64,000 nt of DNA from Escherichia coli (GCF_024502345.1 NZ_JALDNN010000003.1); one strand, 5' to 3'. Counted from the stretch's first letter, positions 9,456 through 34,053 are shown. The notes: generated from the letters alone by a model not told the origin. Numbers and translations: made by a program.

Positions 9456-9485
9456 GACCCCATTTATAATGCGGTCATGCGCTTT

Positions 9486-12867: not shown

Positions 12868-12913
12868 TTATATGCGTTCTTAACGTTTGCTGCCCACTGT
12901 TCAATGCGGAGCA

Positions 12914-13963: not shown

Positions 13964-14233
13964 AGATTTACACCTCTACTCAAAAGAGCCTAATAGAAAC
14001 TAAATCCTTATATATCAATAACTTGAATTCGCCATCACGCACCCATAGAGAGCACCCGTCTTTTGTCGGGCCGTAGGGTTGTTGGCCCCATAGTAACTGC
14101 ATGCTAATCTCTTTCATGCTTAGTCACTAGTAAAGGCTTTACTAATTGCGATGCTACGTGAATATTATTGACGGAGGAGGGGGTTGGGGCAGTGAAAATC
14201 TCTCAGCCAAAACAGTGGGAAAAGGATCGTGAA

Positions 14234-15046: not shown

Positions 15047-15048
15047 GA

Positions 15049-16269: not shown

Positions 16270-16323
16270 CTGCTCCCGCCAGGAATTTGCAATAGACTTA
16301 AATTCCTGGCGTCCACAGGCTCT

Positions 16324-16539
16324 TTATCCCGTTCGCAGGAGTTTACGTCCTTCCGACAGCATTAGGCTGATTTTCCCCGAATCACTGATCTCAATAGCAT
16401 CAACCAGGCTAGTGATCCCGCCAACAGCTTGCTGTTGTGAAATAGCTCCCAGTTTGTAGTCATCGAGTACTGCCGCCAAAAACGCCTTCAGTTTAACCTG
16501 CTCACTCATCGAAAGTATGTACGCCATTTTTAGCCCCAT
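16324..16539 (-). CDS. small hypothetical protein (about 71 aa), 4th gene of methyltransferase operon
   Basis: ATG 1 nt after stop of 439-aa gene; MGLKMAYILSMSEQVKLKAFLAAVLDDYKLGAISQQQ... Confidence 0.3.
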   Translation of the reverse strand: MGLKMAYILSMSEQVKLKAFLAAVLDDYKLGAISQQQAVGGITSLVDAIEISDSGKISLMLSEGRKLLRTG

Positions 16540-16540
16540 T

Positions 16541-17860
16541 TTAAGGTTGTGATTCGGGTGAATTGTATCGTCTAGCTTCCGGGAAATGAGGGAGTTCCTG
16601 GTATTCAGTCTTCTCCGTAGCATCCCAGTGCCACCATCCATAGGCCCCATATTCCTGGTTGTAATACGCCTTCTTAAGTTCCTTTCGCGCAAGATAGGCA
16701 GGTGTCGACATCCCGAAAACTTCCATCGGGAACGGCTTATCACTTCGTGTATCCAGTAAATAAAAATCTGGGAAAACATCGCTCACACTGGCGTCATACC
16801 GCATAGGCTTAACATAGTGCCGGTGTTCGGCATCAAGTTTACGGGACACTATCGCTTCGTAGGAGGAGTCCAGAGGTATCCAGTTATCACTCACCAGCAT
16901 AAGCACTATCTGATGAGCTCGTGCAGAGATACCTCTACTGGTCACCGATACGGGAGATGTAAGAGCAAAAACAACAACTTTGCCCCCATTTTTCCAGGCG
17001 GCATATTCCAGAGGGAATCGCCGCTTCACGCTATCCCAGTGCCCGTCTGAGTTAAAGAAGGTAAGGGGCATACCGCCGAAGTTACGCATAGGTAGAAACT
17101 TCAGCGGCTTCTCATGCTTTTCTGCGTCATAGCGCGGCAGTACTGATAGCAGCAGCAGTCGTTTGTCGCTCAGTTCCGCCGACGACAGCAGTTGAACCTG
17201 CTCACTGGCCACTTTGCTTTTAGAGTCCGCCACCCCGATAAAAAGATGGTCGCCAATACATGCTCTACCCGATCTAATCTGCTTTGCGGCTTCCAACATC
17301 CGGTATCGAACCAGCGAATCATTTCGCTTCCCGGCCATATTCGGATACCAGACATTAAGACCGGCTTCAGTCCACAACAGACTCAGAAGTCCGGACAGGG
17401 TCATTGAAGCCTGGCCACCTTCAGGTCGCTGGATTTGGGGCAGGGAAGGAACCTCAGACTTTTCCGGCGGATCTTTCTCCGTCATGCCTATTCCAAGGCG
17501 GATTGACATGGTCCCCTCATTGTTGATGCGTACAACATTGCTGGCATAACCCTTTAACCCTGTATGCCTGGCATCAAGGTCGAAAAACACACACGATGGA
17601 TCATGCTCAGTGCCGGTATTTGCAGCCTTAATCAGGATGAACGTATCACTGTTTGGTAGTGAGCGGACGTAGAGACGCTTTGCGCCTTTTCCCCGACATC
17701 CGCAGCTGATCACAGATTTCTGCCCGGACGTGTGGTGTGCTTTCTTCAGGGCCGACTGCCATCCCTTTACATACTCATCCTGTGTCTGAAATTCAGCCGA
17801 GTATCGTTTCGTGTTTGGTTCGTCATCGTAAGCAATAAAAACTGCAAACTTCTGGCCCAT
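16541..17860 (-). CDS. hypothetical 439-aa protein downstream of C5-methyltransferase; candidate restriction endonuclease or methylation-dependent partner
   Basis: Strong SD AGGAGG before ATG at 17860; co-directional with MTase; no family recognised by eye. Confidence 0.65.
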   Translation of the reverse strand: MGQKFAVFIAYDDEPNTKRYSAEFQTQDEYVKGWQSALKKAHHTSGQKSVISCGCRGKGAKRLYVRSLPNSDTFILIKAANTGTEHDPSCVFFDLDARHTGLKGYASNVVRINNEGTMSIRLGIGMTEKDPPEKSEVPSLPQIQRPEGGQASMTLSGLLSLLWTEAGLNVWYPNMAGKRNDSLVRYRMLEAAKQIRSGRACIGDHLFIGVADSKSKVASEQVQLLSSAELSDKRLLLLSVLPRYDAEKHEKPLKFLPMRNFGGMPLTFFNSDGHWDSVKRRFPLEYAAWKNGGKVVVFALTSPVSVTSRGISARAHQIVLMLVSDNWIPLDSSYEAIVSRKLDAEHRHYVKPMRYDASVSDVFPDFYLLDTRSDKPFPMEVFGMSTPAYLARKELKKAYYNQEYGAYGWWHWDATEKTEYQELPHFPEARRYNSPESQP

Positions 17861-17884
17861 GGGACCTCCTGAAATTTAAAAATA

Positions 17885-18055
17885 CTAATAGCCTAGCCAT
17901 ATCAATACTTCTTGCGCGTTGTACTCTTCCCTCTCACCCAACTCGGAAAAAAATACGTCTATGTCGCTGGCTACGACGCAATGTTTTGCAAGCTCTTGCA
18001 GAGCTCTCTGTTTTGAAATGGTGAGGTCTTCTGCTGAATCAAAATACGTCATCAT
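17885..18055 (-). CDS. small ORF (56 aa) between methyltransferase and 439-aa gene
   Basis: MMTYFDSAEDLTISKQRALQELAKHCVVASDIDVFFSELGEREEYNAQEVLIWLGY; GGAGG SD; below ORF-track length cutoff. Confidence 0.3.
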   Translation of the reverse strand: MMTYFDSAEDLTISKQRALQELAKHCVVASDIDVFFSELGEREEYNAQEVLIWLGY

Positions 18056-18183
18056 TACCTCCTGATGAAGGAGTTGACTGAAGCAGGCCTTTCTCTCCCT
18101 GCCCAGGTTTTTTTCTGTGCAAAAGTTACAATATTAGTGAAATAAACCATTACGTTAACCTGCAAAATCACACAGAAGAATTA

Positions 18184-19611
18184 CTATGATGCCGCTTCAA
18201 ATTCTCCCTTGAGACGAGCCGCAACGGCGATCTCAATACGGCTTCGAAGCAAACTGGCCACGGCCGCAAATACGTCGACGATGACCGAATTGCCGAACTG
18301 GCGATAGGCCTGGGTATCAGAGACTGGAATGCGAAAAGTAACTTTTCCCGGTTGCTCGAATCCCATAAGGCGGGCACATTCTCGCGGGGTTAAACGGCGC
18401 GGGCGCCTTGCCATATTTACAGGATCATTAAAGTCCTTTTCGCCTATGCTGTGATCCCATCCACGGTCTAGCAAAATTTCAGAGCCATCACGATAGTACC
18501 GTGCGCTGAGTGTTCTGCAAACAACTGATTTATCAAGTGGATTTACCAGTCCGAAGCCAAATCCATTACCTTTTGCCTGGTGCTTTTTAGCGTAGTTATA
18601 AAGGTACTCCCAGAGCTTTGGAGAAAGGATGTAACGGCTATCGACCTCAGCGTCCAGCAGCTCCCCAAGGGTTGGCCGTCGTGAAGGATAAAGAGCCGAT
18701 ACACCACTTAACGAAAAGCCATCATGGAGCTTCAGATCGCGCCTGAATCCAACCAACACGATACGTTCCCGGTGCTGAGGCCTGAAGTTCTTACCGTCAA
18801 TTATTTTGGGGTCCTTTGATCCGTGAGCATCGCAGTCGGCAACATCGTAGCCAAGTTCATCAAGCGCTTTCATGATGATGCGGAACGTATTTCCCTTATC
18901 GTGGCTCTTCAGATTTTTTACGTTCTCAAGAACGAAAATGGCAGGCTGTTTGGCTCGGATGATCCGGGCGACATCAAAAAAAAGGGTCCCCTGGGTGTCG
19001 CATTCAAAGCCGTGTTTTCGGCCCAAAGAGTTCTTTTTGCTGACACCGGCAATACTGAACGGCTGGCATGGGAAACCGGCGAGCAAAACATCATGGTCAG
19101 GAATGGATGCAGCGATAGAAGCATACGCCTGGTCTTCCGACACATCGGGAAGATTGCTGAGTGTAATGTCCCGGATATCTGAGTTGAAATGGTGCTCGGT
19201 GTCTTCGCAGTACCAGTTTGCACTGTATGTCCGGCGGGAGAACTGATTCCATTCGCTTGTAAACACGCATTTCCCGCCAATGGCGTCAAAACCACTCCGG
19301 AGGCCACCGATCCCAGCAAACAAGTCAATAAAACGGAAAAATTTCTGGTCATAGTCTGCTGGGCGTGAGGGGAGCAACGATCGAAGATAATGATATTCTT
19401 CCTGGGTTATTCGACATTCATTAACTGAACCTTTGATCTGGCGAATAAGTGATGCCCTCGACCAGTCGCTGCCGGTTGCAGCATTAAGTTGCGCAGCCAA
19501 ATCTTTTACGTCATAGATACTTGCAACCTGAACCAGTAATTTATGGATAGAGGAATGTGTCTCATCATTTAGCAATGCAGTTATTGCAGGCTCATTTCTC
19601 GCGCTGTACAT
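18184..19611 (-). CDS. DNA (cytosine-5)-methyltransferase, Dcm/EcoRII-methylase-like
   Basis: Motifs FAGIGG (AdoMet binding), PCQPFS (catalytic Cys), ENV; colinear with E. coli Dcm over nearly full length. Confidence 0.9.
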
Positions 19612-19833
19612 CCTTACTCCGTGAAATGTGATTAATTTAGGTTCTCAGACTACCACGCGCAGAAAATTCAATTTTTCTTTAAAGCCCTTTATTTTCATCT
19701 CCTGAAATAAATTTTTTATCCACTTAAATTGCCTCCGTTAACGGAAATTTGCCCGGGTTCTAATTGGTACAATAAGCACTTCTAATCACACGACTAATTT
19801 GTTACTACAAACCATCTAATTCAGGGAGAATGT

Positions 19834-20349
19834 ATGACTCTGTTGAAAAAGTTACTTTTGCCGACATTAATTGTCCTTTTCCCGGCGGCAGTTCTGGCTG
19901 GTCAGTCTTCATTTGAAGCAAAAGTGGTAAAAATTATCGATGGGGACACCATTACCGCGCTCGACGGTCAGAATACAAGCATCAAAATCCGTATGTACGG
20001 TATTGATGCCCCCGAAAGTAAGCAGGCCTTTGGACAAAAGGCTAAACAAGCGTTGAGCTCCGCGATTGCTGCACAGAATATTACGGTAATAGACCACGGA
20101 CCTGATATTTACGGCAGGATGTTGGGGACTATTTGGCTTGATGGTTATGACATCAACGCTTCAATGGTAGACAGTGGTTATGCATGGGTATATCGGTTTG
20201 ACGGTAATCCCATCGTCCCAAACTATCTTAAATTCGAAGCTTCAGCTCAGAAAGCCGTTAAAGGTCTCTGGGTAGATCCTAATCCCGTTGCTCCTTGGGA
20301 GTGGCGCCAGCAAAACCAGAAACCTCAAAAGACGAAAAGCAGGGGGTGA
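19834..20349 (+). CDS. secreted thermonuclease-family (staphylococcal nuclease-like) endonuclease
   Basis: N-terminal signal peptide (MTLLKKLLLPTLIVLFPAAVLA); SNase core motifs DGDT...YGIDAPE... Confidence 0.85.
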   Translation: MTLLKKLLLPTLIVLFPAAVLAGQSSFEAKVVKIIDGDTITALDGQNTSIKIRMYGIDAPESKQAFGQKAKQALSSAIAAQNITVIDHGPDIYGRMLGTIWLDGYDINASMVDSGYAWVYRFDGNPIVPNYLKFEASAQKAVKGLWVDPNPVAPWEWRQQNQKPQKTKSRG

Positions 20350-20355
20350 GCGCGA

Positions 20356-21287
20356 TGACAAGCCAGCATCCTTTACTGAAAATTGCACTTAATGGCGATG
20401 GACTTCTTTCGTGGCCAAATTCACCCGGACAGACTATGCGCTGCCCAACGTGTATGCGAGATGTTATTACGGGTCCGGATGGTGATTTAATACATCAAAT
20501 GGAAGAGGGCGCTAACCCCTGCACGCCATCTGTTGATGTTGTCATTTCAAAGGCGATCATTGAACTACTCAGCACGGGTGAGCGCCTCTATGTCAACCCA
20601 GTTAAGAACGCGAATAGAACACTGGCCCCATCGTTTATCTTTCTGCATAAAGACAAGCAACTTCGACCATTCATAAATACGGAATATCAACCAGCAGGTG
20701 CCACCTGGAGAAGTGATAAAGGGAACAGGCTTGGTTTTTTCTATATGGATGCGCGAGCGTCTAAAATTAATAAGGACCAGTTCGATTTTATTGCTGTAAT
20801 AGACCCATCTACTTTTCAAGCAGAATTTAAGACCTTATGGTCCATGTGTGAATTCGATAACCCCCTTGCCGCGTTACAGCACTTATTGGTTTCAGAGAAT
20901 ATGTCTTCAGTCTGGGTGAAATGGCCTGTTAAAAGCCTACAACCGAGGAAAGAAGCAGTGAAGGCCGATTACTGGTATGACTATTATTCACCTCACTACC
21001 CAGCGCAGCAGGCAGCTTGCACAGCAACAGTGATTGGACTGGAAGGAAATGTATCCGGGGAAACTATTTACATGCTCCAGATCGCTGTAGACCGGTCGAT
21101 AGTTGAGTACCAGCTTGTAAAATCGCTAGGGGTTATATTGCTATTGGATAATACGGGAAATTTGGTATCGGAGACGCGCCCACACTTTGATATAATCATC
21201 AAAGCTTGCATCTCGGGTGTCAGAGACTTTGTACGTCAAAATCCTCGAATGCGAAGTGTGGAGCATCAGATTACCAGTGCAATATGA
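20356..21287 (+). CDS. hypothetical protein (311 aa)
   Basis: ATG at 20356 preceded by GGGGG/GAG SD just after nuclease stop; no family recognised. Confidence 0.55.
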
Positions 21288-21781
21288 GGAAATGGATCAG
21301 CGACTAAATCTGTTGCTCGCCGTAAATACAAGTGCGCACCATAAAATAAAAACACTTTATAAATCAATGACTTTGTCAAAGCTAAGTAGAGATGTCCGGG
21401 GTGGGGCAAAGTTCAAATGTCCTTTGATAATATTGAATTCCTGGATAAAAATCGCATCTTAACCTCTTCGTTTGAGTACCTTGTTGGGTTGACCCCGTAT
21501 TCGCTTTATTTGTAGTATTGGGCTGCTTTGAAGTGTTTCATGTTCAAACGCGACGTGTTCTGTAAGTTCTTCCTGACAACAGAGCCGACAATATATACAC
21601 ATCCGCTATGGAGAATCTGACAACCGCTATGCGTATTACGCCACCCTGAGTTTTTCCTTCCTCTGTCGTACTGAGCAAGCCTCAGCACGCACTCAATAAC
21701 ATCCCGTCTGCGGATGTGCTTTACCGTACGTAAAAATGTAGCCCTCCAGGGCTGACTGTATCTAAAAACTGAGAAATTACT

Positions 21782-23260
21782 ATGTTGCTGTCCTCGACGC
21801 GTAAGGACTGGCTGGGTAACGTCCGTGGTGACGTTCTGGCCGGTATTGTTGTCGCGCTCGCACTCATTCCAGAAGCGATCGCCTTTTCCATTATCGCCGG
21901 TGTTGATCCCCAGGTGGGCCTCTACTCGGCGTTCTGTATTCCTCTCGTTATGGCCTTCTTTGGCGGACGTCCGGCGATGATTTCGTCCTCCACCGGTGCA
22001 ATGGCTCTCCTGATGGTGACGCTGGTGAAAGATCATGGCTTACAGTATTTACTGGCTGCCTCCATACTGACCGGGGTATTCCAGCTGATAGCCGGATATC
22101 TGAAGCTTGGCGGGCTGATGCGTTTTGTTTCACGCTCAGTGGTCACGGGGTTTGTTAATGCACTGGCAATACTGATTTTTATGGCCCAGTTGCCTGAGCT
22201 GACCAATGTGACATGGCATGTTTATGCCATGACTGCGGCAGGGCTGGGGATCATCTATCTCTTCCCTTATATCAACAAAACCATTCCTTCACCGCTTGTG
22301 TGCATCGTGGTGCTGACTGGGATTGCCATGTGGCTGCATCTGGATGTGCGAACCGTCGGGGATATGGGGAAACTTCCCGACAGTCTGCCGGTCTTCCTGC
22401 TCCCGGACGTGCCTTTAAATCTTCAGACGCTGCTCATCATCCTGCCATATTCTGCGGGGCTTGCGGTGGTTGGCCTGCTTGAGTCGATGATGACCGCCAC
22501 TATCGTGGATGACATGACCGACACGCCAAGCGACAAAAACAGGGAGTGCAAAGCTCAGGGCATCGCGAACATCTGCACATCCTTTATCGGAGGAATGGCA
22601 GGCTGCGCGATGATTGGGCAATCTGTTATCAACGTAAAATCCGGTGGACGCGGACGACTTTCAACCCTCACGGCGGGCGTGGTGCTGCTTTGCCTGATTG
22701 TGTTCCTGCGCAACTGGGTCTCCCAAATTCCGATGGCAGCGCTGGTCGCGGTGATGATTATGGTTTCCATCGGGACATTCTCCTGGCGCTCCATTGCCAA
22801 CCTGCGGACACACCCCCTTTCAACCAGCGTGGTCATGCTTGCCACCGTAGCGGTTGTGGTGGCAACACATAATCTGGCCTTCGGTGTGCTGACCGGTGTA
22901 CTGATTGCTTCGCTCAATTTTGCCACTAAAGTATCCCGGTTCATGCGTGTAACCTCAGTTCTGGAGGGGACGAGCCGGACGTATACCGTCACCGGCCAGG
23001 TATTCTTTGCATCAGCAGACCGCTTTACGAGCCACTTTGATTTCCGTGAAGCGATTGAGAATGTGGTGATAGACGTTTCACATGCCCATTTCTGGGACAT
23101 CACGTCCGTCAGCGCCCTGGATAAGGTGGTCATTAAGTTCCGCAGAGAGGGCGCCGGGGTTGAAATACGTGGGATGAATGAAGCCACCCGCACCATCGTT
23201 GACCGGTTTGGTGTTCACGATAAACCTGAAGAAGTCGAAAAACTGATGGGCGGTCATTAA
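21782..23260 (+). CDS. SulP-family anion transporter with C-terminal STAS domain
   Basis: 492 aa, about 10 TM segments, SulP signature region and STAS-like C-terminus. Confidence 0.85.
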
Positions 23261-23278
23261 CAGACTGGAGGGAAAACT

Positions 23279-24106
23279 ATGAATAATACTGTTACAGCTT
23301 GTGTGGACGGTTCACTTTCAACGCGGTCAGTGTGTGAATATGCGGCGTGGGCAGCCCGCACTTTGCAATCACAGCTAGCACTGTTGCACGTTATCGAAAA
23401 AGACAGCACCCCGGTAGTGTCAGACCTGACCGGCACTCTCGGCATAGACAGTCAGCAATTGCTGACCGATGAGCTGGTAGAAATTGAAGGGCAACGTAAT
23501 CGCCTGCTGATGGCCCAGGGGAAAGCAATACTGGAAAGTTGTGCTGAACTGCTTCAAAAACAGGGAAGCCCGGATGTGCTTTTGATGCAAAAACACGGTA
23601 CACCGGATGAAGTTCTGGCAGAGCTGAGCGACCTTCGTCTCATGGTGCTGGGGCGTCGGGGTAGCCAGCATCCGGTAGGCTCTCATCTGGAAAGCGTTAT
23701 TCGTCTGCAAAAGAAACCCCTACTGGTTGTTCCGGAGAACTACTCAGTGCCTTCCAGAGTCATGCTGGCTTATGATGGCAGTGAAGAAAGCAGGAGTAAC
23801 CTGGAACGTCTGACGATGAGTCCCTTACTCAGGGGGCTGGAGTGCCACCTTGTCATGGTAAACGGTAAGAAGGAAGAGCTGCTGACCGCACAGCAAATTT
23901 TACGTGACGCGGATATAGAAAACAGCACAACACATCTTACCGGGCAATCAGTCGGGGACGCGCTTATTCGTTACGCCGAGGAAAATGCTGTCGATCTGAT
24001 AGTGATGGGGGCCTACGGTCATTCCAGGTTGCGGCAGTTCTTTATCGGTAGTCATACCTCCGAAATGCTGCAAAAGACGCAACAACCGCTTCTTATCCTC
24101 CGTTAG
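23279..24106 (+). CDS. universal stress protein, tandem UspA domains
   Basis: 275 aa with two Usp-like halves (VLGRRG..., VMGAYGHSRL...). Confidence 0.8.
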   Translation: MNNTVTACVDGSLSTRSVCEYAAWAARTLQSQLALLHVIEKDSTPVVSDLTGTLGIDSQQLLTDELVEIEGQRNRLLMAQGKAILESCAELLQKQGSPDVLLMQKHGTPDEVLAELSDLRLMVLGRRGSQHPVGSHLESVIRLQKKPLLVVPENYSVPSRVMLAYDGSEESRSNLERLTMSPLLRGLECHLVMVNGKKEELLTAQQILRDADIENSTTHLTGQSVGDALIRYAEENAVDLIVMGAYGHSRLRQFFIGSHTSEMLQKTQQPLLILR

Positions 24107-24125
24107 CACTGATTATCTTAAATAA

Positions 24126-24150
24126 AAAAGGGCGAGTTCTCTCGCCCTTC
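24126..24150. terminator. bidirectional stem-loop terminator between usp and arsC (convergent)
   Basis: AAAAAAGGGCGAGTTCTCTCGCCCTTCGT hairpin flanked by A/T runs. Confidence 0.5.
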
Positions 24151-24165
24151 GTCACAAGAACACGT

Positions 24166-24591
24166 TTAGTTCAGCCGGTTACCTTTTTCATCAACTACCT
24201 TCTCACCGTCCTCTTTCGTGAACGCGCTTTTCTGCGCATCGGGAAGAATATCCAGCACGACTTCAGAAGGGCGGCATAGCCGGGTACCCAGCGGCGTTAC
24301 CACGATAGGGCGATTGATCAGAACAGGGTGCTGCAACATAAAATCGATTAACTGCTCGTCAGTAAAGCGGTCTTCCGCCAGCCCTAACGCTTCAAAAGGT
24401 TCGACATTCTTACGCAGCAGCGCTCGTACCGTGATCCCCATATCCGCAATGAGTTTTACCAGCTCAGCTCGTGATGGTGGGGTTTCAAGATAATGAATAA
24501 CGGTCGGCTCTGTACCGCTGTTGCGGATCATTTCAAGGGTATTGCGTGACGTGCCGCAGGCCGGGTTGTGATAAATGGTAATGTTGCTCAT
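24166..24591 (-). CDS. arsC: arsenate reductase (glutaredoxin-type)
   Basis: 141 aa MSNITIYHNPACGTSRNTLEMIR... classic ArsC. Confidence 0.92.
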   Translation of the reverse strand: MSNITIYHNPACGTSRNTLEMIRNSGTEPTVIHYLETPPSRAELVKLIADMGITVRALLRKNVEPFEALGLAEDRFTDEQLIDFMLQHPVLINRPIVVTPLGTRLCRPSEVVLDILPDAQKSAFTKEDGEKVVDEKGNRLN

Positions 24592-24603
24592 ATCAGTATC
24601 TCA

Positions 24604-25893
24604 TTACAAAGTGAAAGACAGACGAAGCGCCAGTGCTGCAAGCGTGACAAACAGCACGGGGATTGTCATGACAATGCCCACCCGGAAGTAATATCCCCAG
24701 GTAATTTTGATATTTTTCTGCGACAGAACGTGCAGCCACAGTAACGTTGCCAGACTGCCGATAGGGGTAATTTTTGGCCCCAGGTCGCTGCCGATGACGT
24801 TGGCGTAAATCATCGCTTCTTTGATAACACCGGTCGCAGTGCTGCCATCAATCGACAGCGCCCCGACCAGCACGGTCGGCATATTGTTCATCACTGATGA
24901 CAGGAAGGCCGTCAGGAAGCCCGTACCCAGCGTTGCCGCCCACAATCCCTGCTCTGCCAGCTGATTCAGCAAGGAAGAGAGATAGTGGGTCAGACCGGCA
25001 TTTCGTAAGCCGTAGACCACCAGGTACATCCCCAGCGAGAAGATAACGATTTGCCAGGGCGCACCACGCAGCACCTTACCGGTGTTAATGGCATGCCCTT
25101 TTTTCGCAACAGCAAACAGAAGCAATGCACCAGCGGCTGCGACCAAACTGACCGGTACGCCCAGCGGCTCCAGTCCGAAGAATCCCACCAGAAGCAACAC
25201 CAGAACCAGCCAGCCGGTTTTAAAGGTATTCACATCACGTATAGCGTCTTTCGGTTCTTTCAACAGAGAAACGTCGTAAACGGCGGGAATGTCCTTACGG
25301 AAAAACAGATGCAGCATCACCAGCGTAGCCGCAATCGCGGCCAGGTTAACCGGGACCATCACGGCGGCATATTCTGAGAAACCAAGCTTAAAGAAATCCG
25401 CCGAGACGATATTCACCAGGTTTGAGACAATCAGTGGCAGGCTTGCCGTGTCAGCGATAAACCCTGCGGCCATGATAAACGCTAAGGTTGCCCCCCGGCT
25501 GAATCCCAGCGCCAGCAGCATCGCGATAACGATAGGTGTCAGGATCAGTGCCGCACCGTCGTTGGCAAACAGTGCCGCAACCATCGCACCAAGCAGGACG
25601 ATCCAGGTGAAGAGCAGCCGCCCCCGGCCATTCCCCCAACGGGCAACGTGCAGCGCGGCCCATTCAAAGAAGCCGGATTCGTCGAGCAGAAGACTGATGA
25701 TGATCACGGCGATAAAGGTGGCGGTCGCATTCCACACTATCTGCCAGACCACCGGAATATCCCCCAGATGAACGACGCCAGTCAGCAATGCCAGAATTGC
25801 GCCCAGTGAGGCACTCCAGCCAATCCCCAGCCCTCTGGGTTGCCAGATAACCAGGACGAGCGTGAATAAAAAGATAGCACCAGCCAGTAACAT
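24604..25893 (-). CDS. arsB: arsenite efflux permease
   Basis: [28 protein letters not shown]... about 429 aa polytopic membrane protein matching ArsB. Confidence 0.92.
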
Positions 25894-25938
25894 CAGAAAC
25901 TCCATTCACATTTGTTTATTCGGATATATATATCGCCA

Positions 25939-26259
25939 TCAGCAGGAGACAGATGCCACGCTACTGAGCTTGTTGCGTATGTTTTCTCGTTCACAGTTCC
26001 AGGCTGTATCAATAATACCCGCAGCCCATGCTGGCATGTGTGGCGACAGTCGGTAATGCACCCATTTTCCTTCGCGACGGTCGATGACCAGCTCGGCTTC
26101 ACGTAAAAGGGCCATATGGCGAGAAATTTTTGGCTGAGACTCTGCGGTTGCCGCACAGATGTCACAGACGCACATTTCACCGGACTCCCTGAGAAGCATC
26201 ACGATAGTTGAACGGGTCTCGTCGGCGAGCAGTTTAAAAAGCTGAACAGGCTGTAGCAT
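25939..26259 (-). CDS. arsR: arsenical resistance operon repressor (ArsR/SmtB family)
   Basis: MLQPVQLFKLLADETRSTIVMLL...ELCVCDIC (metal-binding CVC)... Confidence 0.88.
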   Translation of the reverse strand: MLQPVQLFKLLADETRSTIVMLLRESGEMCVCDICAATAESQPKISRHMALLREAELVIDRREGKWVHYRLSPHMPAWAAGIIDTAWNCERENIRNKLSSVASVSC

Positions 26260-26345
26260 GCTTAACCTCGTAAAAAAATAACAATACATATGGTATTTCA
26301 TATGTGATAACTTTTAAAGCATAGCTTATGAAATGGAGATTTTTT

Positions 26346-27050
26346 ATGACCGACTTACCAGCAATCGAACCGGCTTATTTTGATGATGCGCTTGCCAGCA
26401 AACTTACGGGCAACAACGAAACCATGCCGCGAATTCTCATCCTGTACGGTTCAGTACGAGAGCGGTCCTACAGTCGTTTTGCAGCGGAAGAGGCCGGGCG
26501 GTTGCTGGCAAAGATGGGGGCTGAGGTGAAAATATTTAACCCATCCGGTCTGCCGTTACCCGATGATGCGCCCGAAAGTCACCCCAAAGTGCTTGAACTC
26601 CGCGAGCTGGTCAGGTGGTGTGACGGAATGGTCTGGAGTTCTCCGGAAAGACATGGCGCCATGAGCTCGGTGATGAAGGCCCAGATTGACTGGATACCCC
26701 TGAGTGAAGGTGCTGTTCGTCCTTCCCAGGGTAAAACGCTGGCCGTCATGCAGGTTTGTGGTGGTTCACAGTCGTTTAACACGGTCAATCAGATGCGGAT
26801 ACTTGGCCGCTGGATGCGGATGTTCACCATCCCCAATCAGTCGTCAGTGCCAAAGGCATGGCAGGAATTTGATGATGAAGGGCGCATGAAACCCTCACCC
26901 TGGTATGACAGGATTGTCGACGTTACCGAAGAGTTGTTCAAAATGACGTTACTCCTGAAAGGGCACACAGCCTACCTGTCCGACCGCTACAGCGAAAGGA
27001 AAGAGAGTCATCAGGAGCTCGCGGCACGGGTCAATCAGGCCAAAATCTGA
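26346..27050 (+). CDS. arsH: ArsH (NADPH-dependent FMN reductase family)
   Basis: MTDLPAIEP...[18 protein letters not shown]... typical ArsH; divergent from arsR. Confidence 0.85.
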
Positions 27051-27082
27051 CAGCCAGGCATGCCCGGATGGATTACCGGGCT

Positions 27083-28486
27083 TTAAATCGGTTTCTTCCC
27101 AAATATCTCTTCAGAGCGTGACTGAAGTTTCACCAGGGCATTGAACATATCGTCCTGATCCAGGGAACGCTGGGATTTCTTCGTCGTGGGAGCTTTACGC
27201 CTGCGAGAAGGGCCGTCTCCGGATGGTACGGATTGCGACCGGTTATTATCCCGCTCGGCCTGGACCAGCTGCGCCATTTCCAGGGCCCGCCCCAGACGTT
27301 TGTTATCCACAATGGCCCCCTGATCGATTTCAGAAAGCTTGTCATAGGTGGAGTAGGGAAGTGATACGCCATTAAGCCGGAGCTCTTTATGTCCATCCGG
27401 GTAATGCCAGACATCGATGTATTTACCAATCGCCCGACGACTGAATTCGCTGTCTTCAATCAGATAAAGGACTTTGTCGTATTGCACTGTGAGTGATTTC
27501 GACACTTTACGAGCTTCACGCCAGTTAAATACCATATCAAGATCGTCATCGACATCCAGTTCCCGATGAACATCAAACTCCTGGCGAGGCGCTTTTGCGA
27601 AACGACGGTTGTAATCGTTCATGAACTCTTCGGCAAATGCGTTCGCAGCTTCCATGGAACTGATGCCCTGGAGCCTGAGCTCCTTGACCAGTCGGTCCTG
27701 AAGCGTCAGGTGCGCCCGTTCAACGCGGCCTTTGGCAGCACTGGTTTCTGCACAAATGGTCTGAATGTTCAGTTCATGCATCGCACGGCCAAACTGGGTA
27801 TCGCCGTCGCCGCCGGTTGCATTTTTATTGTTGATCCTGAATACGCTGGCTTTGTCGCTGTACAGCGCAAGCGGTTTGCCATGTTTTTCAATATAGCCCC
27901 GGGTCGCTTCAAAATAGGTGAAAGTAGACTCAGATTTCACGAAAAGAAGCTGCATTAAACGACTGGTTGCGTCATCAACGTAAACCAGTGCCGTACACTT
28001 AGGTCCCCGATTTTCAAACCAGTGGTGGTCGCAGCCGTCGATTTGTATGAGTTCACCGGCACAGGCACGGCGGTAACGAGGTTGCTGAATTTTTGGCGCA
28101 CGTTGCTTACGTGGGACCCACAGACTGGCCTGAGTCATCAGCTTACGGACGGTTTCTTTGGAAAGATGAACACCGTGCACCTCAGACAGTTTTTCACAGG
28201 CCAGCGTCGGACCGAAATCGTTATAGCGTTCGCGAATAATGTTCAGCGCGTATGCGGCCAGTCCCTGAGGCAACTGGTTGTTACTGGATTTACCACGACG
28301 GCGGCTGGTCATGCCAATCGGACCATCTTCACGATAACGCGCAAGCAGACGACGGCACTGACGGTCGGAGATACCAAGCCGCTGAGCTGCCATTTGTGTT
28401 GTCAGACGCCGGTCGATGACATCCTGAATGATTTTGAGTCGGTTAACTTCATCCAATGTGAAAAACTCCGCTGCGAGAGCCGTCAT
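27083..28486 (-). CDS. DDE transposase (integrase-core type, ISNCY/IS1202-like; family tentative)
   Basis: 467 aa: N-terminal HTH (LGISDRQCRRLL), DDE core (IQIDGCDHHWF...VYVDDATSRL...ETSAAKGRVERAHLTLQDRL). Confidence 0.8.
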   Translation of the reverse strand: MTALAAEFFTLDEVNRLKIIQDVIDRRLTTQMAAQRLGISDRQCRRLLARYREDGPIGMTSRRRGKSSNNQLPQGLAAYALNIIRERYNDFGPTLACEKLSEVHGVHLSKETVRKLMTQASLWVPRKQRAPKIQQPRYRRACAGELIQIDGCDHHWFENRGPKCTALVYVDDATSRLMQLLFVKSESTFTYFEATRGYIEKHGKPLALYSDKASVFRINNKNATGGDGDTQFGRAMHELNIQTICAETSAAKGRVERAHLTLQDRLVKELRLQGISSMEAANAFAEEFMNDYNRRFAKAPRQEFDVHRELDVDDDLDMVFNWREARKVSKSLTVQYDKVLYLIEDSEFSRRAIGKYIDVWHYPDGHKELRLNGVSLPYSTYDKLSEIDQGAIVDNKRLGRALEMAQLVQAERDNNRSQSVPSGDGPSRRRKAPTTKKSQRSLDQDDMFNALVKLQSRSEEIFGKKPI

Positions 28487-28780
28487 GGTAATCCTTACTT
28501 GATTATACACGCCGGACATCTTAACTTAGCCATTATCGGACATTACAACTTTGCTACTACAGACTTTGTCAAAGCAAGTTTAAAATGTCACCTCTTTGTG
28601 CAAGATAGAAAGGGCACTTTCAGCCTATGTAATCATATTAATGTGACTGCTGCGTTATCCCACTCAACCAATTAATAAAGCAAAAGTTAAATATGAAAGA
28701 CTGGAATAAAAATATAACGAAAACATCTTAATATGGAAATATCTGTGTCAACGGGATCTTTAGTTATTGAATATCTGGTT

Positions 28781-29587
28781 CTAAATAGGTTCTACATTCA
28801 ACGGGAAGGGAAACCAAATATCTATATGTTTTTTATAAATACCATTACGTGGCAAACAACAATCTGCATATTTTTTTAAAGAATCTCCACATGGACAAAT
28901 ATTTTCTGGCGATAATACTCCATCATGTTCTTTCGCCTTAAATCTCCAGGTCGTAATATTGAAAATTTGATGTGGGGATTGTATGTATTTGACAACACTA
29001 ATTAAAGTTGAATAGTTATAATGATCACCATCATTGGAGAAAAAAACACTACATTTGTTAACGGGATTACTAACTATGTCATAAGTAATTAATTCAAAAT
29101 CGATCACTTCATCAAAGCAAAGAACTCCATTATAAAGTTTATTTTTAACATGACCACAATCATTAATAAAACTACGGGTTGTATTACATACTGAACATTT
29201 CACTTCTTTTATTATTTCACGAGAACTACCGAAGATTTTATATGGGAATAACGCCTGCCAATTACATACCATTCTCGCTAAGAAGTTAACACCATAGAAA
29301 TTAACCTCAGGCAGAAACTCATTATTTTCTTTAATATGTATTAAATCTATTTCTATCCTTTCAAGTTCTACCCATGCTTCATAAAAATCACCTCTTGTAA
29401 GTAAATTAATGACTTGAATATATTTTAAATGGGCTAGTAAAATTGTTTTGTATAAAAACAATCTGTTTGATTCATTATTCAAGCTCAAGGATTGAGCTTT
29501 TTTTAACTCAGCATTAAGATAATCAAGAATAGCACTATCTTCTTGAGTAATACACATCCAACGCTTTAACTTTTCGTGAATATTCAT
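28781..29587 (-). CDS. candidate defence operon gene D: SEC-C / zinc-finger protein (268 aa)
   Basis: C-terminal CPCGDSLKKYADCC (SEC-C-like metal-binding motif) plus CSVCN...CGH; AT-rich. Confidence 0.6.
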   Translation of the reverse strand: MNIHEKLKRWMCITQEDSAILDYLNAELKKAQSLSLNNESNRLFLYKTILLAHLKYIQVINLLTRGDFYEAWVELERIEIDLIHIKENNEFLPEVNFYGVNFLARMVCNWQALFPYKIFGSSREIIKEVKCSVCNTTRSFINDCGHVKNKLYNGVLCFDEVIDFELITYDIVSNPVNKCSVFFSNDGDHYNYSTLISVVKYIQSPHQIFNITTWRFKAKEHDGVLSPENICPCGDSLKKYADCCLPRNGIYKKHIDIWFPFPLNVEPI

Positions 29588-29604
29588 AATATCTATATAG
29601 ATTT

Positions 29605-30051
29605 TTATTTGATTTTGTTAATTACTTTTAAAACATCGTCTACTTTTCCAGAAACAGTGTATTTCACATGTTTTCCTGATTTATTTTTTTTAATTATAGA
29701 GACTTTAACGTCTATATCTCTAGTTCCAAAGTTATCAATTTTTTTCTGAATATAATTTGAAACAAGATTTACTAAAAAAGGTATCATTACTGATGTGGCA
29801 AAGAAAGTGCCTAACGCTAACGTTATACTGTTTAATTGCAGGTACGAAACACCATTAGAATCTCCGTACACTTTAACATTAGAATGTGATTGCTTGGTGA
29901 ACTGGAAAAAATCCAGTGCATTACCTCCAGTAATTTTTGAACTATCAAAAACGATCGCAATCTCATCATCTTGAGGTTCATATGAAGAAATGATTTTTAC
30001 CTCTTCATCTTCATCACTCATTTCACTCAAAGTAATGGGGTTCATTCTCAA
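29605..30051 (-). CDS. candidate defence operon gene C: small single-TM protein (148 aa)
   Basis: Acidic N-terminus, hydrophobic segment ITLALGTFFATSVMIPFLVNLV, basic C-terminus; 17 bp upstream of gene D. Confidence 0.5.
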   Translation of the reverse strand: MRMNPITLSEMSDEDEEVKIISSYEPQDDEIAIVFDSSKITGGNALDFFQFTKQSHSNVKVYGDSNGVSYLQLNSITLALGTFFATSVMIPFLVNLVSNYIQKKIDNFGTRDIDVKVSIIKKNKSGKHVKYTVSGKVDDVLKVINKIK

Positions 30052-30197
30052 CTCCTTGTTTTATATTTTTACATTCAAATTTTACTATACGACTGGTTAA
30101 TTGCTCCTGTCCAACACACACCAGAGTTCATATGCTTAGCATACAAGGGACCAATGCCAGTAGCGACAGGCTAGTGTGTCAAAAAACCACATGAAGA

Positions 30198-31559
30198 TCA
30201 ATCTCCTGCGGAAAATTTGGCCGCAATTAGTTTCATTGTCCTTTCCATGCCTTGATAAACTGTCGCATCTGTAATGTTTAACCTTGCGAGTTCCTTAAGT
30301 ATTCTAGCTTTGTTTCTGATCACTATTTTTTCTACTTTAAACTCTTGCATAGCATCATCAGGGTTTGAAACTAAATCGGGATAAACAGCATTATTCCCAA
30401 ATAATAAGAATGCACCTGACTGTGATGACATCCTTTCATTATTATTTCTTCCTTTAACGAAAATTAACCTTTCCAAATCTGATGGTATAATTACATCTTT
30501 AAAATAAGGTTTTTCATCTTTAATGTAATGTATGAGTTTTTGACAAGCTTCAGTTTTATTGAAAGCCTCCTTGTCCATTTTACAATCCAGCTGATCTTTC
30601 AGTGTTTGACTTAGCATTGATATATTTGATATGCAACTTACTGTATCAGAGTCAAAGAATTTTATACGATCCCTTTTTGTTTTGAAAATAATAACATGTC
30701 CATCAACCTCATTTGTATTTTCATTATTACTAATGTCGCAACAAGCGAAATACAGAGCGATTAGTGGATTTGATGTTATATCCAACAAACGAGTTGGTAG
30801 TCCGTAGTGTTGCATCCTTACTAACTTGTCTAGCATTGTTTTATCATCAACAAACTCAGTTGGCCTTGCTGTTAGGGCTTCACGGACTAAATTTGATTCA
30901 CTGTGCAAATGCTTGAAGTTACCTTTTTTGTTTTTCCTGAAAACTGATGGAGCCAACTCGTAAGATACATCAGAATGTCCACGATAAAATATTTCTGCAT
31001 CTTCTTCATGATCTTGTTCTAAAACACGCGCCATGAAACTTTGAACATTATCTATTATTGGGTAGTTATCAACTTCATCAGGAAGTGCTTCAGTAGGAGG
31101 AAGTGGTGTACTTCTTGTCGTTATATTTAGAAGTGCTAATGTTTGATTTAAATCACGTGCTTTTATTCCCCAGTGAGTCCGTTTCAGCCCATATGCACCT
31201 AATTCTAAAGCTGTTTGATATAACTCTTTGTTTATCACTACGACATCATCTTGTGAGTGAGTGATTCTGAAATCAAACTCAACATTTTTGTTAACTGTTC
31301 GTAGATTTGAAATTACACCAAGTCGCAAAGTAATGTATTCAACATTGTCTCGGGAATAAAGTTCTGACATAAAAAGCGTAGGTAATTTCTCAATATAAGA
31401 TAATGCTTTATCATTCAAAGGCGTTAACTTCAACCGGATGTCATCAGAGGTGCCTTCTAACATACGTGATATAGGAAAATCACAACTCCCACTAACCCGT
31501 TCATACATGGGCCAATGTTCAAAATAGTCAGGTTCTCCGCCCATAATTAGATTAAACAT
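30198..31559 (-). CDS. candidate defence operon gene B: FRG-domain protein (453 aa)
   Basis: FRG-domain signature block IFYRGHSD...LAPSVFR...RMQHYGLPTRLLDITSNPLIALYFAC...SSQSGAFLLFG preceded by about 190-aa unknown N-domain. Confidence 0.7.
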   Translation of the reverse strand: MFNLIMGGEPDYFEHWPMYERVSGSCDFPISRMLEGTSDDIRLKLTPLNDKALSYIEKLPTLFMSELYSRDNVEYITLRLGVISNLRTVNKNVEFDFRITHSQDDVVVINKELYQTALELGAYGLKRTHWGIKARDLNQTLALLNITTRSTPLPPTEALPDEVDNYPIIDNVQSFMARVLEQDHEEDAEIFYRGHSDVSYELAPSVFRKNKKGNFKHLHSESNLVREALTARPTEFVDDKTMLDKLVRMQHYGLPTRLLDITSNPLIALYFACCDISNNENTNEVDGHVIIFKTKRDRIKFFDSDTVSCISNISMLSQTLKDQLDCKMDKEAFNKTEACQKLIHYIKDEKPYFKDVIIPSDLERLIFVKGRNNNERMSSQSGAFLLFGNNAVYPDLVSNPDDAMQEFKVEKIVIRNKARILKELARLNITDATVYQGMERTMKLIAAKFSAGD

Positions 31560-31572
31560 TAAAACTAAATCC

Positions 31573-32376
31573 TTATATTTTACTTAATGAATTATTTACA
31601 ATCCAATCAATTGCGCCAGAGGTGCGAATCCAAGGCTTTATATTATGATTCACATAATAAATGGCTTCATCCATTCCACCTAACGTGATATATCCACTGT
31701 TAGACTTGATCTGTAATCTGCACTTCGATAACAAGCCGGGGATGTGTCTATTAGAATCAATCGCAGCTTTAGCGATATCATCGGCATCCGGGGATGACTG
31801 TCGGTAGGCGAGTAGGGCGCGTGTATACTGAAAAAACGAACGCATATCCCCAGGATAATCGTCCAGTAGCAAGGCCAGATCATCCACCATTTCAAGCTCA
31901 AGGTAATAGTTCGCTAATAAATGACGAATCCCCTGGTTATCGTTCGGGTTGAGCTTCAGCATTTCGCGGCTATGAGCCATAGCCGGATAAAAATTACCAG
32001 ACTCCCATAAGGCCTCAGCCAAAGCTGCTTTTGCTCTCATATATGGACGTGTTTCGACAAATCCCCAGAAACGTCCTGCGAACTCCTGAAAATCCTCGCC
32101 AAGTGCAATGCTGGCTGCGTACAAAGCAGTCTCCAGCTTCCCGATTTTTGACTCAGGAGGTTCTTGAGATATCTCGCAGTAGAATGAGTATGCGTCAGCA
32201 CAGAGCGGGGATTTCTTGATAGCTTTTCTGATGAGTTTCAGCACAACTTCCAGGTCATCATTTTCCCAGGCATCGAACATGAACTCCTGAGCCGCAACCA
32301 GATCTAGATGTAATTGCTCAGAGCTGACAGCAGTTTTATACAAATCAACGCGCTTTGTAGTCGGGAATTTAATCAT
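31573..32376 (-). CDS. candidate defence operon gene A: helical-repeat (TPR-like) protein (267 aa)
   Basis: Alpha-helical repeat character (AMAHSREMLKLNPNDNQGIRHLLANYYLELEMVDD); 13 bp upstream of gene B. Confidence 0.55.
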   Translation of the reverse strand: MIKFPTTKRVDLYKTAVSSEQLHLDLVAAQEFMFDAWENDDLEVVLKLIRKAIKKSPLCADAYSFYCEISQEPPESKIGKLETALYAASIALGEDFQEFAGRFWGFVETRPYMRAKAALAEALWESGNFYPAMAHSREMLKLNPNDNQGIRHLLANYYLELEMVDDLALLLDDYPGDMRSFFQYTRALLAYRQSSPDADDIAKAAIDSNRHIPGLLSKCRLQIKSNSGYITLGGMDEAIYYVNHNIKPWIRTSGAIDWIVNNSLSKI

Positions 32377-32434
32377 CTCAAGTATCCTTTTGGGGACTCA
32401 CTGTTCCGGTACTTTGCAGCACTGATGGTCGATT

Positions 32435-33793
32435 CTATCGCTTTGAACTTGCCACAAACAAGCTCGGGTCTGCCAGAACGGGATTGATAGCCCGGAGCTG
32501 TTCCTGGATGCGCACCTGAGCCTTACGGCTGGGCGATTTTTTGCTTCGTTCCCGTTTGCCTTCGCTTTCCCGCTCATCCTGTTTTACCTGAGCCAGTCGG
32601 AGTACAGTCCCGAGACGTTTGTTATCAACAATCTGCCCCTGGTCGACACAGGCCAGCTTATCAAATGCCTGGCACTTAAGGCTCCGGTGCCCATAGAGGA
32701 AGGCGAGGGTGCCATCGGGATAATCCAGTACTTTAATTTTTTCACCGGCAAGACGGCTATTTTCTTCTGTGGTGTCCATGAGATAAAGGATCTTATCGTA
32801 CTGGAAGGTCAGTGATTTCGACACGGTACGAACATCATGCCAGGCAAAGATGTCTCTTAATTCATCGGGGCTTTCCTGCACCGGACGATGCAAATCTTTG
32901 GGGAACTTAGCCGGTCGTGAAAACCGGCTGTTAAAGTCAGCGATGAAAGTGGCAAGCCAGGCATTTGCGGCCTCAATGCCGGTTATACCTTCCAGACGCA
33001 TTTCTTTGATCAGCCGATCCTGAAGTGTCTGATTCGCACGTTCCACGCGGCCTTTAGCTTCAGAGCTGTTGGCACAAATAAGCTCGATTGCCAGGTCATA
33101 AAGCACACGTCCGAACTGGGTAACGGTGGTATTGCGTTTCTCCGGACCACTGACGCGAAATATTGCGTGTTTGTCACTGTACAGCGATACCGGCTTCCCA
33201 TGCTGCTCGATGTATTCCCGGGTTGCCAGCATGTAGTCAAAGGCTGTTTCTGACTCGCTGAACCGCAAATGCATCAGACGCCCGGTGGCATCATCGATAA
33301 AGACCAGCAGGCAGCATTTTGGCGCACGGCCTTCAAACCAGTCATGGTGGGAGCCGTCGATCTGGATAAGTTCACCCAGACAATCACGCCGATGTCGGGG
33401 TTGATAAACCCGTGACTTACGGCGAGCATGCGGGACCCAGAGTCCGTCAGACGTCATCCAGTTGCGGACGGTCTCGATTGAAAGCCGGATATTATGGCGC
33501 TCTCTGAGTTTTTCTGCGGCCAGTGTGGGCCCAAAGTCACTGTAGTTTTCACGTATCAGCGTGAGTACTCGTAGTTTGAGAGATTCGGTCAACCGGCGGT
33601 TGCTGGGCTGGCCGCGTTTGCGGCTGACAAGTCCTTCAGCACCAGAAACTCGGTAACGATTGATAAGTCGTTGCGCCTGACGTTCTGAAATGCCAAGCTG
33701 TGATGCTGCATCACGACGGCGTAGACGCTTTTCACAAACTGCCTGTATCACCGGTAGGCGGTGGATCTCTTTATCTGACATGGTCACCAACAT
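32435..33793 (-). CDS. DDE transposase (integrase-core type, ISNCY/IS1202-like; family tentative)
   Basis: 452 aa; same architecture as 27083-28486 protein but clearly a different sequence (LGISERQAQRLI...IQIDGSHHDWF...). Confidence 0.8.
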   Translation of the reverse strand: MLVTMSDKEIHRLPVIQAVCEKRLRRRDAASQLGISERQAQRLINRYRVSGAEGLVSRKRGQPSNRRLTESLKLRVLTLIRENYSDFGPTLAAEKLRERHNIRLSIETVRNWMTSDGLWVPHARRKSRVYQPRHRRDCLGELIQIDGSHHDWFEGRAPKCCLLVFIDDATGRLMHLRFSESETAFDYMLATREYIEQHGKPVSLYSDKHAIFRVSGPEKRNTTVTQFGRVLYDLAIELICANSSEAKGRVERANQTLQDRLIKEMRLEGITGIEAANAWLATFIADFNSRFSRPAKFPKDLHRPVQESPDELRDIFAWHDVRTVSKSLTFQYDKILYLMDTTEENSRLAGEKIKVLDYPDGTLAFLYGHRSLKCQAFDKLACVDQGQIVDNKRLGTVLRLAQVKQDERESEGKRERSKKSPSRKAQVRIQEQLRAINPVLADPSLFVASSKR

Positions 33794-34053
33794 GCGTTGA
33801 GTCCCTTAGAATTGCATTCAGTTTAGCTTACTCTAAGGTGACGTTTCTATCTGGATAAAAAGTGACATTACTAAATGGTTCTAACAATCTTGGTGCGCAT
33901 AACAAAGATTATGTTAAATATGGTGGGTTTGCTCTTAAGTTCATGAGTCCCTCTCTTTCAGGAACTTACCGATGAATCAGTCAGTTGCCAAAGTTTAGTT
34001 GTGGACTTACGATGACTTCATAACACAAAAATTACGGGGCATCCGCTAAGTTC

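Follow-up and report, generated by a model that had tools for sequence, protein, structure and literature searches.

A 7,188-bp arsenic-resistance block of an Escherichia coli plasmid is very probably a single transposon of the IS1202 family

Within the IS1202 family of insertion sequences (IS), members of the ISAba32/ISAjo2 subgroup have TGT/ACA ends, imperfect terminal repeats of 24-26 bp, an inner transposase-binding repeat and target duplications of 3-6 bp (PMC10132070; bioRxiv 10.1101/2022.12.17.520857). The same studies describe insertion in one orientation, which leaves the left end as the proximal one at 5 bp from the XerC arm, as well as tandem arrays with one duplication and 'transporter IS' endowed with a passenger gene. 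The terminal repeats of published members range from 15/25 to 25/25 (PMC10132070). Here we analyze a stretch of 64,000 nucleotides from Escherichia coli (GCF_024502345.1, NZ_JALDNN010000003.1), referred to as the window, in which an initial annotation had placed a block of SulP transporter, UspA and arsRBC-arsH genes at 21782-27050 and had suggested that the ars module and the adjoining transposase gene may form one transposable unit. This suggestion is borne out by inverted repeats, by GACTT duplications and by the presence of the same 7,188 bp with other duplications elsewhere. The annotated range was too short: window 21374-28561 is very probably a single 7,188-bp transposon, i.e. a 'transporter IS' of the ISAba32/ISAjo2 subgroup, which contains the SulP, Usp, arsC, arsB, arsR and arsH genes together with the transposase gene. 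Its ends and chassis consist of the following features:

21369-21373, no strand: left copy of the target site duplication, GACTT, identical to 28562-28566
21374-21422, plus strand: right end of the unit (right inverted repeat, IRR), with the terminal repeat TGTCAAAGCTAAGTAGAGATGTCC at 21374-21397 and an inner motif copy at 21409-21422
27062-27081, no strand: small hairpin GCCCGG(N8)CCGGGC beyond the transposase stop codon; in sister elements with other cargo the stem is conserved and the loops differ
27083-28486, minus strand: intact IS1202-family (ISNCY) transposase gene, 467 amino acids (profile NF033594, 513 bits against 250, profile positions 1-367 of 368)
28514-28561, minus strand: left end of the unit (left inverted repeat, IRL), with the terminal repeat TGTAGTAGCAAAGTTGTAATGTCC from 28561 down to 28538 and an inner motif copy at 28514-28527
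28562-28566, no strand: right copy of the target site duplication, GACTT, matching the left copy

A search for inverted repeats, as had been proposed for 21.3-28.7 kb, was carried out over 20-29 kb and paired 21381-21403 with 28508-28530 (87% complementary), the IRR running from 21374 and the IRL to 28561. The unit has TGT...ACA termini that form imperfect inverted repeats, in which TGTCAAAGCTAAGTAGAGATGTCC of the IRR and TGTAGTAGCAAAGTTGTAATGTCC of the IRL match at 17 of 24 positions. Read inward from 21374, the right end consists of TGTCAAAGCTAAGTAGAGATGTCC, GGGGTGGG and GCAAAGTTCAAATGTCC, while the left end, read on the reverse strand from 28561, consists of TGTAGTAGCAAAGTTGTAATGTCC, GATAATG and GCTAAGTTAAGATGTCC. 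A 14-nt motif is present twice at each end and is inverted in orientation between the ends. Searched as AAGT(N3-6)ATGTCC, the motif occurs four times in the 64-kb window compared to 0.45 expected from shuffles, and it is confined to the two ends of the unit; the copy at 21409-21422 is the form with a 4-nt spacer, AAGT(N4)ATGTCC. In related IncHI1 plasmids, the GACTT of the left duplication (21369-21373) is the native 5 bp beside the XerC arm of this backbone's dif-like site.

Between the end of the arsH stop codon (27050) and the start of that of the transposase gene (27083) there are 32 nt, which hold only the small hairpin, in agreement with the initial annotation that there is no room for a separate repeat. 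Within this gap (27051-27082), neither the inverted-repeat search nor a query with the left end at 3 mismatches found a terminal repeat, and the left-end sequence has no further match with up to 3 mismatches anywhere in the window. Terminal repeats set tightly around the transposase gene alone, which would have spoken against a joint unit, are therefore absent. Two sequence features of the insertion-site flanks were seen in addition. A degenerate XerC-arm-like string, AGTGCGCACCA, lies in the backbone at 21331-21341, 28 bp left of the duplication. In several plasmids, the left flank of the insertion site contains the motif AAATCAAT with 5 bp after it, and AAATCAAT is also found on the XerD side of the dif-like sites in two of the plasmid contexts compared below (L005 and L017).

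Base composition follows the same boundaries. The GC content of the unit, transposase included, is 0.519, compared to a window mean of 0.487, 0.44-0.47 in the left flank and 0.398 on the right side (0.353 in its cargo), with steps at ~21.5 kb and ~28.5 kb that coincide with the unit ends. The contrast noted earlier for a GC-richer block is thus real and strong on the right, but it is only mild on the left, and the block includes the transposase gene. The accompanying description of the surroundings as AT-rich accessory DNA needs to be modified, since the left side is plasmid backbone that is not markedly AT-rich and the right side is the cargo of a second, related element.

The transposase has N-terminal helix-turn-helix (HTH) domains (Pfam HTH_23/28/29/32) and shares 76.6% amino acid identity with that of ISKpn21, 51% with that of the ISLad2-type neighbour in the window and 97-99% with those of sister elements; a search of solved structures with its sequence gave 0 matches. 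Comparison with the sister element in L006 and L010 set the limits of a chassis of ~1.55 kb, which is made up of the 49-bp right end (21374-21422) and of 27062-28561 (hairpin, transposase gene and left end). In the sister elements the IRR is conserved as far as 21422 and divergent beyond. The hairpin at 27062-27081 is treated as the innermost conserved piece of the chassis because it is conserved in sister elements. A role of this hairpin as terminator was considered but is not claimed, its folding energy being no better than that of shuffles (z = -0.15). Read outward, the tip of the right end gives TTGACA, as a junction promoter would have, and the best -10-like partner in the left end, TGTAAT, would lie 19 nt away; a consensus promoter scan called nothing at the unit ends, this pair included. 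In the window, the TTGACA of the neighbour's right end, a -35-like hexamer, sits 5 bp from the left end of the arsenic unit, as it would in a circle junction, and in arrays the outward TTGACA of an upstream right end might drive the transposase gene of the next element.

The unit has been inserted repeatedly into different backbones, with the same ends, in a fixed orientation, at the same kind of target and with duplications that differ between sites. At least 435 PLSDB plasmids have 80% or more of an 8-kb query. Among the plasmid contexts compared (labelled L001-L018), several were fetched and their junctions read, giving the following duplications around the unit:

IncHI2 plasmids (L001, L002): ACTTA on both sides
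L005, a copy with an internal deletion (arsB-arsH): CCCTT
L011: TTATA
L007: TTATA/TTTAT(A), variant on one side
L010: CATGT(T)
L012: CACTT

In two of these contexts the left end of the unit lies exactly 5 bp from a dif-like site, namely AGTGCGCATAA-CAAAGA-TTATGTTAAAT in L005 and AGTGCGCTTAA-TCATTG-TTATGTAAAAT in L012. The copies are 99.4-99.8% identical, and the adjoining backbones are 71-92% identical to that of the window; high identity of the copies on divergent backbones points to recent spread. An empty site homologous to that of the window is seen in an unrelated MOBP plasmid (L018), where a sequence like the left flank, AACTT, a dif-like site and the right-flank sequence of the window are contiguous. 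Most copies belong to one IncHI2 lineage and share the same ACTTA junction. No PLSDB record covers 80% or more of the left junction of the window, i.e. the window's backbone joined to the arsenic unit is absent from that collection. A scan of species-representative genomes with the right-end sequence returned 0 matches, and the arsenic element seems to be confined to plasmids of non-representative strains.

Some of these plasmids carry further family members next to the unit. ISKpn21-type copies adjoin it in L002, L007 and L010. In the Enterobacter cloacae EN3600 plasmid (L010, CP035634.1), four members lie head to tail at 6000-23400, in the order ISLad2-like element with three cargo genes, CBASS (cyclic oligonucleotide-based antiphage signalling system) element, arsenic unit and ISKpn21, and the junctions that were read, those on either side of the arsenic unit, have the same 5-6 bp, CATGTT. 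In the Citrobacter sp. MGH103 plasmid (L011, ~21188-26700), a 5,320-bp element that also neighbours the unit in the window is inverted with respect to it, the left ends facing each other across TTATA, which points to an inversion or an insertion in opposite orientation.

The unit shares with the published subgroup a single HTH transposase in the size range of about 400-500 aa, TGT/ACA ends, inner repeats (for which binding is predicted) and a 5-bp duplication. Placement of the left end 5 bp from the XerC arm is seen directly in L005 and L012, and in the window a second member intervenes, as it does in published arrays. Described members span 1.3-2.5 kb and have at most one passenger open reading frame (ORF); with 7,188 bp and six passenger genes the unit exceeds this range about threefold. 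The size range is a descriptive and not a mechanistic criterion, and the unit is a transposon-sized member.

Its closest named relative is ISKpn21 (2,278 bp), which likewise has a 467-aa transposase, TGT...ACA ends, a 5-bp duplication and the same dif-like targeting, forms tandem arrays with one duplication and has its passenger DNA in the slot that runs from the transposase stop codon to the right end. That passenger DNA has one small anonymous ORF, whereas the arsenic unit, three times as long as ISKpn21, has six genes of known type (5.6 kb). The two also have different end sequences, TGTCAAGGCTCAATTGAAATGTCC being typical of ISKpn21 and TGTCAAAGCTAAGTAGAGATGTCC of the unit, and under the ISfinder naming criterion (cited in PMC10132070) the unit is separate from ISKpn21. 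The CBASS-carrying sister elements in the plasmid pKpnB199 (MK552108, L006) and in E. cloacae EN3600 (L010) are closer still: they have the same terminal repeats, inner motifs and cargo slot, a transposase 97% identical, ~91% nucleotide identity over the chassis and the duplication AACTT. They differ in their cargo, which encodes an oligonucleotide cyclase and a four-transmembrane (4TM) effector in 3.57 kb. In the literature we found no published name for these sister elements.

ISLad2 and the 5,320-bp neighbour of the unit belong to the same family and subgroup and agree with it in target, orientation, 5-bp duplications and cargo slot, but this type has a transposase only 51% identical and, in the neighbour, an AT-rich cargo of four genes. 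ISLad2 is given as 1,647 bp (PMC10132070); in the window, no matching right end is present 1,647 bp from the left end of the neighbour (IRL'), and the best match is at 28567. It should be noted that the poorly conserved 'dif-like' sequences beside ISKpn65 in MK552108 (L006, 5480-5500) and CP001630 (PMC10132070, Table 8) resemble left ends of adjacent IS1202-family elements (TGTAACAGCAAAGTTGTAATGTCC) and not degenerate Xer sites.

Likeness to other kinds of mobile elements is more limited. A resemblance to Tn2502-type transposons, raised by the initial annotation, does not extend to the transposition module. Tn2502 (Yersinia enterocolitica pYV, arsHRBC) is plasmid-borne and has arsC-arsB-arsR divergent from arsH as in the unit, but nucleotide identity is 74% and restricted to window 24166-27046; it lies beside a Tn3-family transposase fragment and a resolvase and has neither SulP-Usp nor IS1202-type ends. 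A parallel with Tn7-like elements has been drawn for the family (PMC10132070). The unit resembles these elements (TnsB, attTn7 homing) in its working, not by membership: both combine TGT/ACA termini with several transposase-binding repeats at each end, duplicate 5 bp and insert in one orientation, a set distance away from a conserved 'safe' site. The arsenic unit differs in having a single transposase gene, without TnsA, TnsC, TnsD and TnsE. Three other classes do not fit: there is no Tn3-type TnpA or resolvase within 21374-28561 (Tn3 family), the single dif-like match in 64 kb is at 33892 and outside the unit (dif module), and there is one transposase gene, the far end having no more than 49 bp of the chassis (composite transposon).

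The unit is directly followed by a second member of the family and by the dif-like site:

28567-33886, minus strand: second transposon of this family (5,320 bp), with a right end (IRR') TGTCAAAGCAAGTTTAAAATGTCAC and a left end (IRL') that ends at 33886; the ends are identical at 17 of 25 positions
33892-33919, plus strand: dif-like XerC/XerD-type site GGTGCGCATAA-CAAAGA-TTATGTTAAAT, 5 bp from IRL' and the only pattern match in the window

The dif-like pattern was a hand-made regular expression that would miss very degenerate sites. The left end of the second element is TGTTAGAACCATTTAGTAATGTCAC, its ISLad2-family transposase gene lies at 32435-33781, and its cargo consists of four AT-rich genes with Pfam FRG and TPR matches; the FRG-domain protein matches PDC-S15, a candidate defence family in PADLOC (1.7e-99). 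The same 5,320 bp is found elsewhere with its own duplications, ACTTA in L001, ACCTT in L003 and GACTT on both sides in L009. The arsenic unit is present without it in L002, L005, L010 and L012, and it is present without the arsenic unit in L003, L004 and L009. The sequence of the dif-like site at 33892-33919 is the one given as target of ISKpn21/ISKpn65 (PMC10132070, Table 8), and it is the landing site of the tandem array. The order of parts in the window is thus backbone, GACTT, arsenic unit, GACTT, second unit, ATCTT and dif-like site.

The backbone is IncHI1-like, its left flank being 92% identical to an IncHI1B-type plasmid and ~71% to IncHI2. IncHI1 plasmids with an identical left flank have the site GACTT followed by AGTGCGCATAA-GATGGA-TTATGTTAAAT, with other occupants: in L008 a family member that carries Shedu, in L009 one that has three small ORFs, together with the 5,320-bp unit, and in R27 a sister element, whose right end was not found within 2.5 kb. 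The XerD arm TTATGTTAAAT and the flank beyond it are identical among the window and the IncHI1 plasmids compared. On the other side of the site, the window has ATCTT-GGTGCGCATAA-CAAAGA, other IncHI1 plasmids have GACTT-AGTGCGCATAA-GATGGA and R27 has AGTACATATAC-CAAAGA; the differing spacer and XerC arm at 33887-33919 could be a recombination footprint or simple divergence.

In the mechanism that we propose, the HTH-DDE transposase, whose HTH part is matched by profile, would bind the two repeated sites at each end, and the whole unit would move by circular copy-out/paste-in, by analogy with ISKpn21. The expected circle junction would be IRR(...TTGACA)-5 bp-(TGTAGTAGC...)IRL. The outcome of insertion is seen directly: at a dif-like (xrs) site, the left end comes to lie 5 bp from the XerC arm, and 5, sometimes 6, bp are duplicated. 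In the window, the unit would first have arrived at the xrs of an IncHI1-type backbone, and the 5,320-bp member would later have inserted between the unit and the site. The outcome would be a head-to-tail pair with the same GACTT between its members, in which the element nearest the dif-like site is presumably the last arrival. This account is drawn from genomic sequence, and present-day movement of the unit is a prediction.

Several observations do not sit easily with such a history. The left end of the unit in the window adjoins the right end of the second element and not xrs, so that the order of arrival and the targeting of xrs at this locus are deduced. On the xrs side, the second element is bordered by ATCTT and not by GACTT, so that two plain insertions alone do not account for the array, and IncHI1 plasmids differ from one another in the XerC arm. 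Both features, the unmatched ATCTT and this variation of the arm, show that recombination has acted on the array as well. The spacing is 6 bp rather than 5 in two contexts (L007 and L010). Furthermore, all insertions at one xrs give the same duplication, so duplications shared within an array are no proof of separate events; proof of separate insertions comes from the duplications because these differ between sites.

We therefore weighed other explanations of the block. An ordinary IS of ~1.5 kb may have lost its right end and come to abut an unrelated arsenic island, the repeat at 21374 being fortuitous or an orphan. The lack of a repeat beside the stop codon of the transposase gene would also follow from truncation, and sister elements have left orphan ends elsewhere, such as a truncated copy in L005 and a remnant in L012. 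However, the same 7,188 bp recurs with context-specific matching duplications between unrelated flanks, which exclude a shared ancestral flank, the two-site architecture of 21374-21422 mirrors that of the left end, and the sister elements keep the same 49-bp end with a different cargo; we thus regard a truncated IS as very unlikely. It is somewhat easier to imagine, yet still improbable, that the unit was once mobile and is now a fossil, spread by plasmid transfer and by homologous or Xer-type recombination of the whole array. The mismatch between ATCTT and GACTT on the xrs side suggests that flanks were reshuffled by recombination, and the inverted neighbour in L011 and the predominance of one IncHI2 lineage with its ACTTA junction fit the same explanation. 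Against a fossil stand the intact transposase ORF, which matches its family profile end to end, the near identity of the copies (99.4-99.8%) across backbones only 71-92% identical, and several distinct duplications, some of them directly at xrs sites, which speak for repeated and fairly recent transposition.

Two further explanations deserve almost no credence. The arsenic unit and the second element could move as one by their outer ends only, the arsenic part being cargo of a larger structure. Their adjacency in the window, in IncHI2 plasmids and in L007, and their related end sequences would suit such a pair, but the inner 5 bp, which would stay constant in joint movement, varies (GACTT, ACTTA, TTTATA), each element is found without the other, and the two transposases are only 51% identical. 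An equally far-fetched reading takes the block for an Xer-mobilised dif module or for a Tn2502/Tn3-type arsenic transposon. It can call on the dif-like site at 33892, the degenerate XerC-arm-like string at 21331 and the arsC-arsB-arsR/arsH gene order as in Tn2502. The block is, however, not bounded by dif-like sites, of which the whole window has one match, and the ars genes of Tn2502 are 74% identical in nucleotides and accompanied by a Tn3-family transposase fragment and a resolvase, neither of which is present here. A single transposon of the IS1202 family, with the ends at 21374 and 28561, thus remains our reading of the unit.

The cargo (~5.6 kb) sits in the slot flanked by the right end and by the stop codon of the transposase gene. 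Two modules make it up, SulP-Usp and the divergent arsH/arsRBC genes, and all the genes named in the initial annotation were recovered at their coordinates by ORF listing and profile searches:

21423-21781, plus strand: start of the cargo, a non-coding leader upstream of the SulP gene, with promoter-like sites at 21424-21452 and 21489-21518 (consensus matches only)
21782-23260, plus strand: SulP-family anion transporter with C-terminal STAS domain (Pfam Sulfate_transp 2e-59, STAS 3e-14)
23279-24106, plus strand: Usp, universal stress protein, likely with tandem domains (Pfam Usp 9e-35, two stretches)
24127-24150, no strand: terminator-like hairpin where the Usp and arsC genes converge (10-bp stem with 6 GC pairs, then a T run)
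24166-24591, minus strand: arsC, glutaredoxin-dependent arsenate reductase (NF007456, 298 bits against a cut-off of 242)
24604-25905, minus strand: arsB, arsenite/antimonite efflux permease (TIGR00935, 740 bits against 415; Pfam ArsB 1e-158)
25939-26301, minus strand: arsR, metalloregulatory repressor, divergent from arsH (NF007528, 197 bits against 97)
26328-27050, plus strand: arsH, NADPH-dependent FMN oxidoreductase, the last cargo gene (TIGR02690, 378 bits against 292)

In the established ars pathway, ArsR is the repressor, ArsC the arsenate reductase, ArsB the exporter of arsenite and antimonite, and ArsH the enzyme that detoxifies trivalent organoarsenicals. ArsR, ArsB, the glutaredoxin-type ArsC and ArsH all pass the curated NCBIfam cut-offs, and together they are predicted to form a complete and intact arsRBC plus arsH determinant. 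The SulP protein falls under the cut-offs of the named NCBIfam subfamilies. The hairpin at 24127-24150 marks the seam between the two modules. SulP-Usp is also a stand-alone module elsewhere, spanning the equivalent of window 21505-24112 (L013, L014): at 94% identity it adjoins a resolvase in an E. coli IncFIB plasmid, and in a Klebsiella plasmid it is found at ~76% identity next to an ars cluster of different arrangement. The recurrent association of SulP-Usp with ars genes hints at a functional link with arsenic resistance.

Two neighbouring regions of the window were also noted. In the left backbone, 18184-20349 encodes a C-5 cytosine DNA methyltransferase and a homologue of secreted-type thermonucleases. 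Directly after the dif-like site, 34054-38370 has two long ORFs, annotated elsewhere as site-specific integrases, and a third ORF; they match profiles only weakly (NF041502, 86 bits where the cut-off is 350), and the same block follows the unoccupied dif-like site in L018. The dif-like site may belong with these adjoining recombinases rather than with XerCD.

In the literature we found no description of an arsenic-carrying IS1202 element; ISfinder and TnCentral were outside this search, and a name may exist there. For the arsCBR-arsH determinant of IncHI2 plasmids, the only remark found is that it is 'co-located with an ISNCY transposase'. We rate the arsenic unit as a new and unusually large addition to the known transporter-IS kind of the IS1202 family. 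This recently defined family has been known with at most one anonymous passenger gene, while here a member has a multi-gene resistance cargo and its sisters have a phage-defence cargo. The arsCBR-arsH determinant is widespread on IncHI2 plasmids (R478-type, now mcr-9 plasmids), and a site-specific transposon of 7.2 kb accounts for its arrival on different H-group backbones, for the constant kind of place in which it is found and for the means by which it could spread further. Annotation pipelines that call the transposase gene as an isolated IS overlook the true mobile unit.

One chassis with a fixed slot carries two cargoes, either arsenic resistance with SulP-Usp or CBASS, and other, less closely related members of these arrays carry Shedu, the PDC-S15 candidate defence set and other small gene sets. 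It is quite possible, although we would stop just short of expecting it, that H-group and related enterobacterial plasmids have in their dif-like site a 'landing pad' on which IS1202-family transposons stack head to tail, each with one chassis and interchangeable cargo. If this is true, the length of ISLad2 (1,647 bp) and some of the 'degenerate dif-like targets' of ISKpn65 may need revision, and the dif-like sites of plasmids would be self-assembling islands of resistance and defence, built by site-specific transposition and not by Xer recombination.

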